From contig JBBRWS010000005.1 in assembly GCA_038249055.1 (NCBI GenBank), positions 1,822-65,821 on the forward strand: DNA of 64,000 nucleotides, written 5' to 3'. The position numbers and the translations under genes are program-made. The notes beneath the pieces were generated by a model. That model saw only the letters and a program-made list of their open reading frames with translations. It did not search any database and was not told the origin of the DNA. Source of the DNA: Minisyncoccia bacterium. GTDB taxonomy: Bacteria > Patescibacteriota > Minisyncoccia > Phycocordibacterales > UBA9973. Shown here piece by piece: positions 4,600 through 57,754 of the stretch; the first letter of the stretch is position 1; every line of letters starts with the position of its first letter.

Positions 4600-5097
4600 A
4601 TGAAAATTTTATCAATTGATCCGGGATTTGAAAGAATAGGAATAGCTATTATAGAAAAAACTTTTTTAAAAAAAGATATTTTAGTTTATTCAACTTGTTT
4701 TAAGACATCAGCAAAAATTCCATTTCCAGAAAGACTTAAAAACATCGGCAATGAAATTGAAAAAAATATAAAAAAATATAAACCTGAAGCACTTGCGATT
4801 GAAAAATTATATTTTACAACAAACCAAAAAACGGTTATGGGTGTATCTGAAGCTCGTGGAACTATTATTTACGTAGCGGCAAAAAATAATCTCGCTGTTT
4901 ATGAATACACACCTCCACAAATAAAAGTGGCTGTGACGGGGTATGGTAAGGCAAGTAAGGATATGATTATGTCGATGGTTCCAAAACTTATAGATATAAA
5001 AACTACCATAAATTCTGATGACGAAATGGACGCAATAGCTGTTGGTCTTACTTGTCTAGCTTGTAAAAATATTGATTTAATAAAAAAATTATTATAG
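4600..5097 (+). CDS. ruvC: Holliday junction resolvase RuvC
   Basis: 165 aa; N-terminal ILSIDPG(F)ERIGIAI motif and acidic catalytic residues of the RuvC family; follows ruvB. Confidence 0.85.
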   Translation: MKILSIDPGFERIGIAIIEKTFLKKDILVYSTCFKTSAKIPFPERLKNIGNEIEKNIKKYKPEALAIEKLYFTTNQKTVMGVSEARGTIIYVAAKNNLAVYEYTPPQIKVAVTGYGKASKDMIMSMVPKLIDIKTTINSDDEMDAIAVGLTCLACKNIDLIKKLL

Positions 5098-5249
5098 GGC
5101 TATTTATAGCTTGTTTTAAAAGTGTTTTTTAGTGTATAAAATTTTTTATTTTTAATAATTAAACTAAAGGTTATCCACAACCCATAAGGTATTGCAAAGC
5201 AAATTAGATTTTGCTACAAATAGTAAATTATAATTTGCTTAAATTTTTT

Positions 5250-53972: not shown

Positions 53973-55520
53973 TTAAACACCGTGCTTTTTATGTAACTTT
54001 TCAACTTCTTCTTCTTCCATTTTGTCTTTTTTCTCTTTACCCCTCTCCCCTAGAACTTTTAGTTCAGCATCTCCAAGCATATTTAGTGATTTTACTAATT
54101 CAGATAAGTGAATTTCTGTATTTTTGGATGGGTCATCTAGAACTTCTTCAAGAAGTGCACTTAAAATCCAGCCCATACGAGGAGATGGTTTCACATGTAA
54201 CGTTTTAATCATATATTCCCCATCTATAGCTAATTGGCCTACAGATATTGGATCATGTAGAACCTCTTCAATCATAGCGTGATATTTACGTAAGCGATAT
54301 GGGGCCTCTTTCTTTTTCATACCAACCCTATCACATTCTCGTACATTCATAAGTTCCCAAATATGTTCCTTCCCTACATTTTGAACAACACGACGGACTG
54401 CGGAAAGAGTGATTGTTTCTGTATCTGAGAAAAACATATGACCACGAACCAATTTCAACACCAAGTCGGTTGTTTTTTGGGGAAATTTTAATCTATCCAT
54501 TATTTGTTTCGTCATTCTGGCTCCAACAACTTCATGTCCGTAAAATGTATATTTCCCTTTTCCACCAGCTTTTGTTCCGTCCCAGCGTCTTGTTTTAGGT
54601 TTACCGACATCGTGAAACAGCGCCGCTAATCGAATTTCTAGAGACCAACTTTTTTTTACCGCATGGCCAAGAGCATGAAGTAAATGTTCCCATACGTCAT
54701 AAATATGCTCACCTTTTTGCTCACATCCAATTCCCTCTTCCAGTTCAGGAATTATATATTTAAGAAGATTAAGTTTAGAAAGAAGACTAAGGCCAAGAAC
54801 TGAGTCATCTGACATAATGATTTTTATAAATTCATCTCTAATGCGTTCAAAAGATATATTCTTGATTAATTCTGAATTATCAACAATTGCTCGTGTTATA
54901 TCACTAGATAATATAAATCCCAGTTGAGCTGAAAAACGGATAGCGCGAATCATTCGAAGGGCATCCTCATTAAATCTATCTTCGGGATTTCCGACTGCTC
55001 TTATAATTTTGTCCTTTATGTCCTTTTGTCCATTAAAATAATCAACAATTTGTCCTTTTCCTGGATTATATGCTAAAGCGTTTATTGTAAAATCACGTCT
55101 TTTAAGATCATCTTCTAAATTATTACTAAATTTTACATCATCTGGATGTCTAAAATCACTATATTTTGCTTCAATTCTATATGGAGTTACTTCAATTATA
55201 TAATACTTTGTTTCAGGTGAAACAATATTTTTACTCATTTCTGATGTTTCACATGTAACATTATTTAATTCCTTTGGTATACACACACCAACTGTGCCAA
55301 ATTTGTTCTCGTATATAGTCTTTTCAAATAATGAAATAATTTCGTCTGGTTTTGCGTTTGTAGTAATATCCCAATCGTTTGGTTCCCTGTTCATTATAAG
55401 ATCACGGACACAACCCCCGACTAAAAAAACTTGAAATCCGGATTTTTCAAGTGTTTCTGTTACACGTGTAACATATTTTGGGATTAAATTATTATTTATA
55501 GTCGTTAGTTTTTTTTCCAT
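53973..55520 (-). CDS. cca: CCA-adding tRNA nucleotidyltransferase with HD domain
   Basis: 515 aa; Pol-beta-type head FLVGGCVRDLIM..DWD; RNA-binding body; C-terminal HD (HDVGK). Confidence 0.82.
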   Translation of the reverse strand: MEKKLTTINNNLIPKYVTRVTETLEKSGFQVFLVGGCVRDLIMNREPNDWDITTNAKPDEIISLFEKTIYENKFGTVGVCIPKELNNVTCETSEMSKNIVSPETKYYIIEVTPYRIEAKYSDFRHPDDVKFSNNLEDDLKRRDFTINALAYNPGKGQIVDYFNGQKDIKDKIIRAVGNPEDRFNEDALRMIRAIRFSAQLGFILSSDITRAIVDNSELIKNISFERIRDEFIKIIMSDDSVLGLSLLSKLNLLKYIIPELEEGIGCEQKGEHIYDVWEHLLHALGHAVKKSWSLEIRLAALFHDVGKPKTRRWDGTKAGGKGKYTFYGHEVVGARMTKQIMDRLKFPQKTTDLVLKLVRGHMFFSDTETITLSAVRRVVQNVGKEHIWELMNVRECDRVGMKKKEAPYRLRKYHAMIEEVLHDPISVGQLAIDGEYMIKTLHVKPSPRMGWILSALLEEVLDDPSKNTEIHLSELVKSLNMLGDAELKVLGERGKEKKDKMEEEEVEKLHKKHGV

Positions 55521-55832
55521 AAGAAAATTAGACTACGATATTTTTGTGCGATAGATATCTAGGAGAATCGCGAGATACTCTAGCTGGTACTTTTCTATCT
55601 TCGATAAGGAAAAGTCTTCCGATTCTCCTATGAGAGCAAAACTATTTGCTCTCTATCCCGCACAAAAAGCTTAGCTTATTTTTGTGCGGGATACCCAGTA
55701 GGTCATTTTGCTAAATGACCCGTGAGGTCATTCTACTGAATGAGGATCATCAATTCCGATTCTCCTATTAAATTTAACCTGCAATATCGTTCTACTTGTT
55801 AACTTATACATAATAACCGTATATTTTTTTTG

Positions 55833-55903
55833 TGCGGGATAGGAGAATCGGACTCCTGTCTCATCCTTGGCAAGGACGTGTTCTACCACTAAACCAATCC
55901 CGC
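55833..55903 (-). tRNA. tRNA-Gly (anticodon GCC)
   Basis: Cloverleaf folded by hand: acceptor GCGGGAT/ATCCCGC, D-stem GTTT/GAAC, anticodon stem CGTCC/GGATG, loop TTGCCAA, T-arm AGGAG-TCCGATT-CTCCT; close to E. coli tRNA-Gly(GCC); no encoded CCA. Confidence 0.85.
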
Positions 55904-56034
55904 AACCATAAAATAACTTATAAAGTATAATCATTTTTAGTAAAAAATGCAATTATGAATAAATGCTTATTTTAAAAGCTGATTTACTAAAAAATAAAAT
56001 TAGTATACAATAATATTAATCAAATATTGTATAT

Positions 56035-56106
56035 GCGCCCGTAGCTCAACGGATAGAGTACTTGTCTTCGGAACAAGTGATGTGGGTTCGATTCCTGCCG
56101 GGCGCA
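56035..56106 (+). tRNA. tRNA-Arg (anticodon UCG)
   Basis: Acceptor GCGCCCG/CGGGCGC, D-arm GCTC-AACGGAT-AGAG(T), anticodon stem CTTGT/ACAAG, loop CTTCGGA (U33, UCG, G37), T-loop TTCGATT; no encoded CCA. Confidence 0.8.
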
Positions 56107-56310
56107 CAAAAAGCCCGAGCTCCGTCCCTGCGGACGGAGCGTGCAGGAATCGAAAGATTTTTCGATGTCGAGCTTGTGAGACCGAAAAATACCAGACTAA
56201 GTAATAGTCGATTCCTGCCGGGCTAAATCAAAATCTTAAACTTATTTTAAAATGTGAAATGTACACTGAGAATGGTAAATAATTCTACTCGCGGTCCTGC
56301 CGGGCGCACC
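56107..56310 (+). repeat. tRNA-Arg 3'-end-derived copies (TCGATTCCTGCCGGGC at 56208-56223; GGTCCTGCCGGGCGCACC at 56293-56310) plus structured module X1 (CTGCGGACGGAGCGT + expanded T-arm-like stem GCAGGAATCGAAAGATTTTTCG ... TCGATTCCTGC)
   Basis: Direct repeats of the last 16-18 nt of the adjacent tRNA; 11-bp stem that mimics and extends the tRNA-Arg T-stem. Confidence 0.55.
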
Positions 56311-56719
56311 CTATATTTCCTGAATATACAAATTAAATACGAGACCTTACTTTTGACCTTTATGCGTCCTTTATCCCCACAAAAAAGCCTTAAAAATTAA
56401 TAATTTTGTGGATAACTATGTGTGTATTGTTTATAAAAGACAATTATGTCATAGTAGTTTTGAAAGACATTATTTTAAAATTCAATAATATATGTTGTTA
56501 TATAAAGATATTTTTAGATTTGAGTCCTTAATCGAAGATTTTTGTCCATTAAAGACAAAATCGTTTCACGTGAAACGATTTAATTTGTTACACATGTAAC
56601 AAAGCTGTTAAATATATGAATTTACAAAAATTTTTTAATAAACATAGATTATTAGTAATATATTTTACACAATTCTATTATTTTAAATATAAAAATGAAT
56701 TGAGTAAATAATTTGGCTG

Positions 56720-57115
56720 ATGAAGAATTTTATATCTGGTACACAAAAAATAGGAGAATTAGGTGAAGGAGTTGCCTGTATGTTTCTTGTGAAACATGGT
56801 TTTGATATTTTGGAAAGAAATTATACTAAAAAATGGGGAGAAATTGATATTATTGCTCAAAAAGGTGATAAAAGATACTTTATTGAAGTTAAATCTAAAA
56901 GTGTACTAAGTTTAGATTTTGTATCAAATAATGAAGGAAGACCCGAAGAAAATATGCATCCATGGAAGATGAAGAGACTAAGAAGGGTAGTTGAAACGTA
57001 TTTAATCAGTCAAAGACTTGGGTATGTTGATTGGCAGTTTGATCTATTTGTAGTGTATTTGGATATAGATGGTAGAAAAGCGAGAGTTAAGGTGATGGAG
57101 AATATAATATTGTAA
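56720..57115 (+). CDS. yraN: YraN-family (UPF0102) PD-(D/E)xK-fold endonuclease-like protein
   Basis: 131 aa; GELGEGVACMFL...GEIDIIA..YFIEVKS pattern typical of YraN. Confidence 0.65.
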   Translation: MKNFISGTQKIGELGEGVACMFLVKHGFDILERNYTKKWGEIDIIAQKGDKRYFIEVKSKSVLSLDFVSNNEGRPEENMHPWKMKRLRRVVETYLISQRLGYVDWQFDLFVVYLDIDGRKARVKVMENIIL

Positions 57116-57164
57116 GATATTATTTGAGTTTTTATCAATTTTAGTGTATATTATTATGGTATTT

Positions 57165-57235
57165 GCGGGATTAGTTTATCGGTAAAATAACAGTTTTCCA
57201 AACTGTGGTGAAGGGTTCGACTCCCTTATCCCGCA
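57165..57235 (+). tRNA. tRNA-Gly (anticodon UCC)
   Basis: Acceptor GCGGGAT/ATCCCGC, D-stem GTTT/AAAT, anticodon stem ACAGT/ACTGT, loop TTTCCAA, T-arm AAGGG-TTCGACT-CCCTT. Confidence 0.8.
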
Positions 57236-57242
57236 CAATTAT

Positions 57243-57267
57243 AAAAACCAGCTTCGGCTGGTTTTTA
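57243..57267. terminator. Intrinsic terminator (CCAGC-TTCG-GCTGG) flanked by A5/T5
   Basis: GC stem with stable TTCG tetraloop immediately after tRNA-Gly(UCC). Confidence 0.7.
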
Positions 57268-57268
57268 T

Positions 57269-57492
57269 GTGCGGGATAGGAAGCAGACTACTCTGCTTCC
57301 GTAAGGGAGTCAAAGGGCTTTTCATTATAAATTTAGACCCTGTCTAAATTTATTGAAAAGGCATACTGTCCTCGTAGAGGAAGGCTCCCTTTGTTTTTAT
57401 CTGCGGACGGAGCGTAAGGGAGTCGAAAGATTTTTCTTTATTTTGATATTAATCAAAATAGAAAAATACCCGAATAGGTTGTATTCGACTCC
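57269..57492 (+). repeat. tRNA-derived fragments and module X2 (inverted copy of the tRNA-Gly(GCC) 3' end GTGCGGGATAGGA; CTGCGGACGGAGCGT + expanded T-arm-like stem AAGGGAGTCGAAAGATTTTTC ... TTCGACTCCCT mimicking the tRNA-Gly(UCC) T-arm)
   Basis: Shares the 15-nt CTGCGGACGGAGCGT block and the GAATCGAAAGATTTTTCG-type hairpin with X1. Confidence 0.5.
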
Positions 57493-57754
57493 CTAATTTA
57501 ATTTATCTGGATGCCATATTTTATTAAACCTGGACTATGAGTAGAACCGGGATATATTCCTGTATTCATGGCCGGGACCGGCATTAGCCTTATCGAAAAT
57601 TACAGGAATATTTGAATAGGGTCCGGGATCGTGAGTACACTTATCGACGATTACATCGTCAGGTACTTTTCGCTCTGGCTAATGCCAGAGAACGAAAAAT
57701 CTTTCGATTCCCGGGCACGAGTGAAGCAGTTCACTCGTTCACCCCGACAATAAG

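Follow-up and report, generated by a model that had tools for sequence, protein, structure and literature searches.

Structured modules that copy the 3′ ends of neighboring tRNA genes in Patescibacteria

Within a 64,000-nucleotide stretch of a Minisyncoccia bacterium genome (hereafter the window), each of four transfer RNA (tRNA) genes is followed by a module that carries the end of that particular tRNA. Complete modules carry it twice, once as its complement and once as a direct copy. What kind of element is fitted in this manner to whichever tRNA gene it stands behind? The question is pointed in Patescibacteria, whose genomes are tiny, hold single-copy tRNA genes and contain little noncoding DNA, and where such modules nevertheless occupy the space behind many tRNA genes. 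We find that the modules represent a new, widespread class of structured elements of Patescibacteria (Paceibacteria/Minisyncoccia). Our favored interpretation, to which we assign a probability of about one-half, is that they are non-autonomous insertion elements specific for the 3′ ends of tRNA and transfer-messenger RNA (tmRNA) genes and mobilized in trans.

Modules behind the tRNA genes of the window

A preliminary description of this region reported two modules, behind tRNA-Arg and tRNA-Gly(UCC), that share a 15-nucleotide block and a stem copied from the T arm of the adjoining tRNA. Both modules are real. The block, CTGCGGACGGAGCGT, occurs exactly at 56128-56142 and 57401-57415, where about 0.05 occurrences would be expected even with three mismatches allowed. 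The stems that follow it (GCAGGAATCGA/TCGATTCCTGC after tRNA-Arg, AAGGGAGTCGAA/TTCGACTCCCT for tRNA-Gly(UCC)) each consist of the T-loop and 3′ T-stem strand of the neighboring tRNA together with the complement. Two is nonetheless too few: the window holds four intact modules, one per tRNA gene and each on the strand of its tRNA, plus four decayed or truncated units (X0p, X1b, X2a and X3b). The pattern AAGAYTTTTC-N(8-38)-GAAAARTACC, derived from the core common to the window modules, is matched four times in the 64 kilobases compared to 0.00 expected, at 55586-55618 (-), 56154-56193 (+), 57427-57470 (+) and 57662-57703 (-).

The tRNA genes and units are listed here with the evidence for each. 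R1 is a covariance model of the module, and L numbers denote loci from other genomes, as described below.

55832-55903 (-), tRNA-Gly(GCC), neighbor of X0p and X0; ARAGORN, Rfam tRNA model 64.8 bits
55684-55767 (-), X0p, old degenerate module; sequence, direct-repeat families D9/D16/D17, orthologous copy in L120
55546-55683 (-), X0 unit, a spacer hairpin (55662-55683) plus an intact module; R1 93.9 bits, core pattern, fold z −4.8, insertion/deletion relative to L120
56035-56107 (+), tRNA-Arg(UCG), neighbor of X1; ARAGORN, Rfam 65.8 bits
56108-56224 (+), X1, intact short-variant module; R1 99.8 bits, RNA minimum free energy −54 kcal/mol, z −8.3
56256-56309 (+), X1b, putative 3′ fragment of a long-variant module; direct repeat D9 (100%), sequence
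57165-57236 (+), tRNA-Gly(UCC), neighbor of X2a and X2b; ARAGORN, Rfam 63.3 bits
57243-57270 (+), terminator-like hairpin with a UUCG loop between tRNA-Gly(UCC) and X2a; sequence, same layout at many loci
57271-57392 (+), X2a, full but divergent module; fold −51.7 kcal/mol, z −5.7, repeats D6 and D10, orthologue M1 in L122
57401-57494 (+), X2b, 5′-truncated module; R1 67.4 bits with P2 deleted, complete orthologue M2 in L122
57795-57866 (-), tRNA-Pro(UGG), neighbor of X3; ARAGORN, Rfam 58.1 bits
57748-57794 (-), spacer hairpin between tRNA-Pro and X3; inverted repeat I1, 100% complementary
57619-57747 (-), X3, long-variant module; R1 83.6 bits, core pattern, fold z −4.7
57570-57607 (-), X3b, 3′ fragment of a further unit, CGATAAG-GCTAATGCC-GGTCCCGGCC; direct repeat D7

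The modules are noncoding and about 110 to 165 nucleotides long. Read 5′ to 3′ on the strand of the tRNA, a complete unit often opens with a terminator-like hairpin. There follow a first antisense arm of 7 to 9 nucleotides, which is the complement of the tRNA 3′ acceptor strand, the discriminator and the next base; hairpin P2, with 8 to 9 base pairs and the consensus loop AACUGCUU, and then GU; and a second antisense arm of 10 to 12 nucleotides, complementary to the 3′ T-stem strand and to T-loop bases 56 to 60. The antisense copy covers about the last 19 nucleotides of the tRNA, from T-loop position 56/57 to just beyond the discriminator and often a few trailer bases, and P2 splits it at the boundary between the T stem and the acceptor stem. 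Next comes a three-way junction core composed of (G)AAAG, P4 (ACUUUUC...GAAAAGU) with a variable hairpin cap, ACC, and P5 with a GUA loop. A long variant adds the mini-hairpin P6 (GUG-UACU-CAC), which covaries to GCG/CGC, AUG/CAU and GGC/GCC. The module closes with the tRNA sequence in sense orientation, from about C56 to slightly beyond the discriminator, and thus with a direct repeat of the tRNA end.

When the single strand folds, this sense copy base-pairs with both antisense arms (P1 and P3), giving a rod from which P2, P4 and P5 branch. The pairing rebuilds a base-paired copy of the target site, and in P1 it extends to the discriminator and to trailer bases. In addition, the tRNA 3′ end, the trailer, the spacer hairpin and the 5′ arm of the module form one long palindrome, which is perfect over 31 nucleotides at tRNA-Pro.

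This anatomy changes how several features noted earlier are to be read. The 15-nucleotide block covers the loop and 3′ strand of P2 as well as the junction; it is lineage-specific and cannot serve as a defining motif. The supposed GAATCGAAAGATTTTTCG hairpin instead combines the last part of P3 with the junction AAG and the P4 5′ strand. The term “T-arm mimic” is misleading, because T-loop bases 56 to 60 are paired to their complement in P3 and no free T-loop can form. An inverted motif seen at 57690-57709 is real and belongs to a third module, on the minus strand 3′ of tRNA-Pro. A further copy proposed at 56533-56548 has no covariance-model match at E ≤ 10 and a fold z-score of only −1.5. Finally, the second of the two reported modules does not stand immediately 3′ of tRNA-Gly(UCC), since the older full module X2a intervenes before 57401.

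Fold z-scores are −8.3 for X1 and −4.4 to −5.7 for the other window copies. In X1, P1 pairs GCCCG (56113-56117) with CGGGC (56219-56223), P2 spans 56120-56139 (loop CTGC, 56128-56131), P3 pairs 56143-56153 with 56208-56218, P4 pairs 56157-56164 with 56183-56190, and P5 lies at about 56195-56209. The intact module of X0 proper spans 55546-55661 (-), 3′ of tRNA-Gly(GCC), with its acceptor 5′ arm at 55655-55661, P2 at 55632-55653, the P3 5′ strand at 55619-55630 and the core at 55586-55618; on its 3′ side are the P3 3′ strand (55560-55570) and a degenerate acceptor 3′ copy that ends in CGCAC at 55546. X3 has its acceptor 5′ arm at 57740-57747, P2 at 57717-57739, the core at 57662-57703, P5, the extra hairpin P6 (GTG-TACT-CAC) and a degenerate copy of the T 3′ and acceptor 3′ strands. 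The spacer hairpin before it centers the perfect 31-nucleotide inverted repeat I1 (57740-57770/57773-57803), which takes in the tRNA-Pro 3′ acceptor strand and the X3 5′ arm. X2b lacks the terminator, the acceptor 5′ arm and the P2 5′ strand and begins at CTGCGGACGGAGCGT; its P3 pairs 57416-57427 with 57484-57494, and its core is at 57427-57470.

The older units retain recognizable parts. X2a, which has no match to R1 at E ≤ 10, includes an acceptor 5′ arm (GCGGGAT, 57271-57277), P2 (GGAAGCAGA/TCTGCTTCC), P3 (AAGGGAGTC with GGCTCCCTT) and the core CTTTTC..GAAAAG, and its 5′ arm forms one long palindrome with the hairpin at 57243-57270 and the tRNA-Gly(UCC) 3′ end. X0p was missed by the module models in both covariance and profile searches; it carries an antisense T arm (TAGGAGAATCGG), P5/P6-like remains, an internal tandem duplication of 25 nucleotides and, at its terminus, a copy of the tRNA 3′ end (GGGTATCCCGCAC). 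X1b consists of the P6-like TACTCGCGGTC and then a perfect 15-nucleotide copy of the tRNA-Arg 3′ end (TCCTGCCGGGCGCAC), and comparison with long variants indicates that it is probably a module fragment. X3b has the P6 variant GGC-TAAT-GCC, which covaries with GTG-TACT-CAC and is also present in L104.

A family matched to its tRNAs

Species-representative genomes were scanned with the reverse-complemented core pattern, which returned at least 119 loci (the L numbers). An independent profile search identified true modules in 116 of the 119 loci listed, distributed over at least 86 assemblies, and the three non-modules equal the chance expectation. Among the pattern matches listed, 102 of 135 lie less than 400 nucleotides 3′ of a same-strand tRNA gene. 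With nhmmer we recovered at least 154 modules, 122 of these 154 (about 80%) within 600 nucleotides 3′ of a same-strand tRNA. The neighbors represent at least 37 anticodon classes plus one tmRNA, the modules are always co-directional with the tRNA and sometimes stand between tRNAs of an operon (L067, L029), and the retrieved loci of a single metagenome-assembled genome (MAG) contain up to nine of them. Nearly all assemblies are labeled Patescibacteria, Paceibacteria, Minisyncoccia, Nomura-, Vogel-, Taylor- or Lloydbacteria, or “Saccharibacteria” (an automated submission). Recurrence of the 15-nucleotide block had been proposed as a check on the two original modules; joined to the core, the block itself has zero matches in metagenome_contigs, but the module family recurs massively.

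Known families do not account for these sequences. A search of the window against Rfam 15, at gathering thresholds and at E ≤ 10, returned only the four tRNAs plus chance-level matches (the spacer palindrome by tRNA-Pro) and no module, and ARAGORN called only the four true tRNAs. The modules also have zero matches in IMG/VR (2.9 million viral contigs), INPHARED phages and PLSDB plasmids. We found no description of such an element in the literature searched, the coverage of which was incomplete, and this is weak evidence of novelty.

The correspondence between each module and its own tRNA was measured by comparing the last 23 nucleotides of the tRNA with the 110 nucleotides after the core for 102 module-tRNA pairs, with tRNAs swapped between loci as the control. 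The longest exact match averages 11.6 nucleotides for a module and its own tRNA, compared to 5.4 nucleotides after swapping. Exact matches of at least 10 nucleotides to the tRNA 3′ end are found for 59% of true pairs and 0.7% of swapped ones, which bears out the earlier claim that modules are matched to their own neighbors. For the antisense arm, matches of at least 8 nucleotides are found in 77% and 10%, respectively. At G·U pairs of the tRNA acceptor and T stems, where an antisense copy of the 3′ strand can be told from a copy of the 5′ strand, the module 5′ arm is the Watson–Crick complement of the 3′ strand at 32 of 34 positions and copies the 5′ strand once.

Identical P2 segments of 24 to 25 nucleotides (GAGCAAGCAAACUGCUUUGCUUGCGU) occur beside different tRNAs, with different arms, in different assemblies, and identical P4 inserts of 17 to 22 nucleotides do likewise; therefore, a constant body is combined with tRNA-specific arms. 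The same holds inside the window, where X1 (Arg) and X2b (Gly) have one P2 type in common and differ in their arms. As a barcode for tracing jumps, P2 is only partly useful because the consensus P2 is widespread across modules.

The predicted structure, whether selected or templated, is well supported by covariation across genomes, the check proposed for the initial two copies. RNAalifold recovers P2, P3, P4 and P5 from an alignment of 53 modules (A1), in which 21 of 29 pairs carry compensatory changes. Paired cells amount to 94% in A1, compared to 31 to 50% when partners are slid by one to three columns, and the covariation score of 0.598 (against about 0.1) was reached by none of 500 shuffles. 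On the tRNA-sense strand, G·U mismatches outnumber A·C mismatches by 93 to 23 in P2, P4 and P5 of 132 distinct modules; in tRNA stems of the same loci the ratio is 109 to 6. Because G·U exceeds A·C on that strand, the mismatch pattern points to a single-stranded sense strand, either RNA or DNA, as the likely active form, although the signal is less clean than for tRNA.

Several individual loci add to this picture. L109 (4267-5334) contains smpB, a tmRNA gene (4792-5182), a module whose arms match the tmRNA 3′ end, and further 3′ fragments; this apparent orphan adjoins a tmRNA, and therefore tmRNA is also a target. In L046 (3834-3907) of a Patescibacteria MAG, ARAGORN calls a tRNA with the anticodon UUA (which reads UAA, “tRNA-Stop”) that is followed by a module; this tRNA may be a suppressor or may indicate recoding. 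A second core type, GAAAGCCGGAGCG...GGGGTCGAGAGATTTTTCAGCAGAAAAATAC, is located between tRNA-matching arms in L048 (near minus-strand offset 414), in L068 (near 2104) and, in L004 and L098, 3′ of the tRNA-Leu(UAA) module; the pattern and model used therefore capture only part of the family. The P4 cap is often CGAGC-GAA-GCGAG, with tandem G·A pairs around a GCGAAGC mini-hairpin (e.g., L021, L028, L065, L075, L086), and P5 carries a GNA triloop. GCGAAGC mini-hairpins and GNA triloops are unusually stable in single-stranded DNA and in RNA.

Insertion element, small RNA or relic

Comparisons between related loci give the modules the appearance of insertions. In L049, tRNA-Gly(GCC) is directly followed by the gene for the CCA-adding enzyme, with no module, whereas in L020 an identical tRNA-Gly(GCC) is separated from that gene by a spacer, a module and GATTCTCCTACGCCGCACAT, a 20-nucleotide direct repeat of the tRNA end that bounds the L020 insert. 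Likewise, the 138-nucleotide X0 unit is absent from the same place in L120, a locus whose CCA-adding enzyme has 86% amino acid identity to that of the window and whose tRNA-Gly and tRNA-Arg are identical; the flanks align on both sides, and X0p is common to both. Among exact repeats of at least 10 nucleotides, 38 of 61 start at T-loop C56/G57. The repeats end at the discriminator or 1 to 2 nucleotides past it, except for one-fifth that reach 7 to 12 nucleotides or more into the A-rich trailer. Repeat lengths are 19 to 30 nucleotides, and the hairpins that lie beyond the repeat end differ between the two copies. A templated or recombinational origin, as suggested in the preliminary description, fits both the direct repeats that bound these insertion/deletion polymorphisms and the result at tRNA G·U positions.

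Occupancy also differs between relatives. Across 12 genomes with syntenic Gly/Arg/Gly/Pro clusters, any subset of the tRNAs may bear a module, and in the retrieved loci as a whole, which were selected for modules, 76 of 191 tRNAs have none. A tRNA-Arg that is identical in the window and in L120 is followed by a short-variant module in the window and by a different long-variant module plus a truncated unit in L120. A terminator-like hairpin often stands between tRNA and module, and tandem arrays as well as truncated or decayed copies occur. After tRNA-Gly(UCC) of L122 there are two complete tandem modules, the second of which (M2, with P2 TTTCGTCC-CTGC-GGACGAAA) is the orthologue of X2b. Because M2 is complete, the 5′ loss in X2b is a deletion from a complete ancestral tandem copy, which weakens the idea that this truncation is a sign of reverse transcription.

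Four orphan modules match a same-strand tRNA located 0.66 to 2.6 kilobases upstream, with only co-oriented open reading frames (ORFs) between. Two further arrangements were observed. The tRNA-free contig of L057 (1-7120) has three modules that have one spacer hairpin in common and resemble each other in their arms; they alternate with small gene groups (NUDIX, unknown, histidine phosphatase, NUDIX) in a layout that resembles a cassette array. At the otherwise empty tRNA-Gly(GCC) site of L035 (416-450), the tRNA end is duplicated (CTACTCCGCAC twice, 8 nucleotides apart), and this may be the footprint of a lost module.

If the modules are indeed mobile, the folded sense strand, as RNA or single-stranded DNA with its arms paired to the target copy, would be the substrate of an enzyme encoded elsewhere. 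The antisense arms would then be an address, acting either as a guide or as a mimic of the target, that directs insertion beside the matching tRNA end. A polymerase would have copied these arms from the target, and they would not descend from a duplicated tRNA gene, because their complementarity is strictly Watson–Crick and includes trailer bases, and because the same body occurs with different arms. Conceivable routes for rewriting the arms are fold-back synthesis, template switching within the long palindrome, or guide-dependent single-strand transposition. A more ambitious proposal, which we consider doubtful, is that each module is a self-retargeting, guide-bearing miniature element whose body (P2 plus P4/P5) stays constant while its arms and terminal copy are rewritten from the target. 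One enzyme system might in that case address any tRNA end by base pairing, with neither a CRISPR array nor a protein encoded in cis.

A number of findings weigh against mobility. Each insertion or deletion described above could also be explained as a deletion by recombination between direct repeats, and the occupancy figures are biased because the loci were retrieved through the module pattern. The core is kept across many genera, which fits selection for a cellular function, and the position of the modules would suit co-transcription with the tRNA, including the cases between two operon tRNAs. The tRNA-Cys modules of L016 and L093 have P2 in common, and their arms track local changes in the T stem; they are apparently orthologous between genera and fit a cellular function at least as well. 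A move to another tRNA would require that both antisense arms, on either side of P2, be rewritten. No circular or excised intermediate was seen. Moreover, no recombinase, transposase or reverse transcriptase is present among the ORF clusters or the 20 Pfam-scanned ORFs of the 8-kilobase loci.

These surveys covered the surroundings of the modules as follows. Clustering of the 944 ORFs in the loci revealed only housekeeping synteny (LepA, CCA-adding enzyme, YraN, RecG, ClpB, ValRS). Pfam domains in the 20 ORFs between tRNAs and distant modules are NUDIX, HIT, DUF6602, histidine phosphatase, SmpB, DivIC, LepA and one HNH. Recombinase families are not enriched within the 8-kilobase loci, no integrase adjoins the modules, and a Xer-like gene near the tRNA cluster reflects conserved synteny. 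The retrieved loci also include no module split by a gene inside P4, as might be expected of an autonomous parent. In a single case, L017 (4065-5075), an ORF of 238 amino acids for an HNH_5 endonuclease is located directly upstream of an orphan module with tRNA-Ser-like arms.

The same observations can be viewed from the side of cellular function. The main alternative, which we hold only tentatively, is that the modules are functional small RNA genes that arise from the tRNA 3′ trailer. Such an RNA could form a rod that mimics the acceptor/T-stem helix of its own tRNA, or in an open form be antisense to the 3′ 19 nucleotides of the tRNA. Its role might lie in processing of the tRNA 3′ end or in quality control; alternatively, it might titrate tRNA-binding enzymes or tRNA 3′ fragments as a decoy or sponge, or stabilize the transcript. 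Patchy occurrence would then reflect loss, and the match to the tRNA would be kept by selection or gene conversion. This explanation accounts naturally for the invariant orientation in the trailer or between operon tRNAs, the strong covariation and the excess of G·U over A·C on the sense strand, the retention of the core in at least 86 assemblies and many genera, the apparently orthologous tRNA-Cys modules with arms that follow the local tRNA, and the occupation of all four window tRNAs. It accommodates less well the many tRNAs without a module, even in syntenic clusters of relatives, and the tendency of modules to decay, truncate and accumulate in tandem. A strong terminator-like hairpin often separates the module from the tRNA, the repeat and the antisense arm contain trailer bases that are not part of the tRNA, and the arms avoid G·U where the tRNA itself has G·U, which an RNA mimic would not need. 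Mimicry of tRNA for processing enzymes such as RNase P, RNase Z or the CCA-adding enzyme, as suggested initially, is therefore unsupported and partly contradicted, given that the repeat and antisense arm often extend into the trailer. Furthermore, the presence of different arms on the same body demands a copying mechanism in any event. A small RNA and an insertion element are not mutually exclusive.

It is very unlikely that the modules are inert attR-type scars of integrase-driven islands or prophages that entered tRNA genes and were later deleted. The directly repeated tRNA 3′ end does resemble the attL/attR sites of tRNA-targeting islands, tmRNA is among the targets, and some modules lie 0.7 to 2.6 kilobases from the matching tRNA with co-oriented genes between. 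However, independent scars would not share a covarying structured core across at least 86 assemblies and at least 37 tRNA classes, and this conserved core largely refutes the idea. An antisense copy of the att segment is also foreign to classical att sites, no integrase adjoins the modules, and viral contigs, phages and plasmids yield no matches.

The proposal that the modules are degenerate duplicates of the neighboring tRNA, with collapsed D and anticodon arms and an insertion in the T-loop, draws on the presence of acceptor-like and T-like stems in tRNA order with sequences related to the neighbor, but is refuted because the 5′ arms are an antisense copy of the tRNA 3′ end (32 of 34) and not copies of the 5′ strand; in addition, P1 pairs discriminator and trailer bases, the conserved P2 and core bear no relation to tRNA, and neither the Rfam tRNA model nor ARAGORN matches the modules. 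Split, permuted or intron-containing tRNAs, hammerhead, HDV-like (hepatitis delta virus) and other ribozymes, T-boxes and tmRNA were dropped as identities by reasoning from anatomy, with no Rfam match and with their cores absent.

If the modules are insertion elements, it is useful to ask which mobile systems they resemble. Williams (2002) reportedly distinguished sublocation classes of integrative elements that target tRNA/tmRNA 3′ ends via tyrosine integrases. Like such islands, the modules target the segment from the T-loop to the 3′ end of a tRNA or tmRNA gene, leave the gene intact, have this segment directly repeated at both ends of the insert (20 nucleotides in L020 relative to L049) and accrete in tandem. 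Unlike islands, the inserts are only about 110 to 165 nucleotides, code for nothing, come without an integrase gene, and combine a conserved structured core with the att segment in antisense. The family also spans at least 37 tRNA classes, compared to the one or few that an integrase family usually serves. In being short, noncoding and multicopy (at least 154 in at least 86 assemblies), modules are similar to miniature inverted-repeat transposable elements, but their inverted repeat is derived from the target tRNA rather than fixed, their direct repeat measures 19 to 30 nucleotides in place of a short target-site duplication, and the retrieved loci contain no parent element.

Other parallels concern single-stranded substrates and guides. 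As in integron attC sites and the forked hairpin of CTX-phi attP(+) used by XerCD, spaced inverted copies fold into an imitation of a double-stranded site whose structure is kept while its sequence varies, although this is an analogy of architecture only. The attC and CTX-phi attP(+) sites function in a strand-specific manner, and their enzyme is encoded elsewhere. Unlike those sites, the module stem is interrupted by P2 and has no R-box or dif-like arms; conserved boxes are absent because the stem sequence follows the tRNA next door. Palindrome-associated transposable elements (PATEs) derived from IS200/IS605 and repetitive extragenic palindromes (REP) mobilized by RAYT are likewise small, noncoding, hairpin-rich, inserted in one orientation immediately 3′ of a defined sequence, complementary internally to the flanking target and, as proposed for the modules, mobilized in trans. 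IS200/IS605-type elements move by single-strand “peel and paste,” with the target chosen by base pairing to an internal guide. Their guides are 4 to 5 nucleotides, in contrast to about 19 to 28 nucleotides of complementarity in the modules, which moreover repeat the target at their right end; no Y1 transposase was found among the ORF clusters and 20 scanned ORFs. Group II introns, with their exon- and intron-binding sites (EBS/IBS), and IS110 bridge RNAs also use two short guides separated by structure against one contiguous target, and as in programmable guide elements the same module body appears with different putative guides. The modules differ in having no ribozyme or recombinase attached and in having these arms fully paired in cis to a copy of the target.

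Among RNAs, the closest comparisons are to the 3′ETS-leuZ sponge from a tRNA 3′ external transcribed spacer (ETS) of Escherichia coli, mascRNA, the tRNA-like domain of tmRNA and bacterial Y RNA. These comparisons rest on a position in the tRNA 3′ external spacer and on acceptor-like and T-like helices stacked as in tRNA. Unlike these look-alikes, including viral tRNA-like structures, the modules have a paired T-loop, no analogue of the D-loop and no encoded CCA; their helix pairs discriminator and trailer bases, and each copy is customized to a different tRNA.

The consequences depend on which explanation is correct. Mobile modules would represent site-specific insertion by means of an address of about 19 bases that differs for each tRNA on a constant body. 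They would imply targeting by guides and the rewriting of those guides, with relevance to programmable DNA insertion and to the gain of small cassettes at tRNA genes in reduced genomes. Should self-retargeting be true, it would constitute a new principle of nucleic acid-guided, target-templated integration in the smallest bacteria. If the modules instead function as RNAs, they would be the first companion RNAs specific for individual tRNAs, with one for each tRNA species, and would point to a new step in the maturation or surveillance of tRNA across one-third of bacterial diversity. In both cases the family is useful as a marker; it confuses the annotation of tRNA flanks and is absent from Rfam.

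Adjoining genes, rearrangements and other repeats

The gene for the CCA-adding enzyme is located at 53973-55520 (-), right after X0, and encodes PF01743, PF12627, HD and PF13735 domains; the tRNA genes of the window do not encode CCA. Inside the tRNA cluster, at 56720-57115 (+), is a gene for a YraN/UPF0102 nuclease-like protein, for which an exact-protein look-up returned no record. Many relatives keep this arrangement of tRNA, CCA-adding enzyme and YraN genes.

The inverted and direct repeats of the modules may drive local inversions and deletions seen in the compared loci. Relatives differ by an inversion of the divergent tRNA-Gly(GCC) and tRNA-Arg(UCG) pair with respect to the gene for the CCA-adding enzyme, as revealed by comparing 53973-56224 of the window with L126 (1890-3904), L127 and L110. 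The Gly gene adjoins that of the enzyme in the window, L035, L118 and L006, while Arg and its module do so in L126, L127 and L110. Recombination between the oppositely oriented modules may have produced this inversion.

A separate 16-nucleotide palindrome type (TGTTTCACGTGAAACA / TGTTACACGTGTAACA, repeats D1/D3/D4) has six copies around the tRNA cluster, some of them inside ORFs, at 55209-55231, 55245-55267, 55458-55473, 56562-56584, 56586-56601 and 56781-56803. Binding by a protein could account for this palindrome, as could membership in another family of small repeats.

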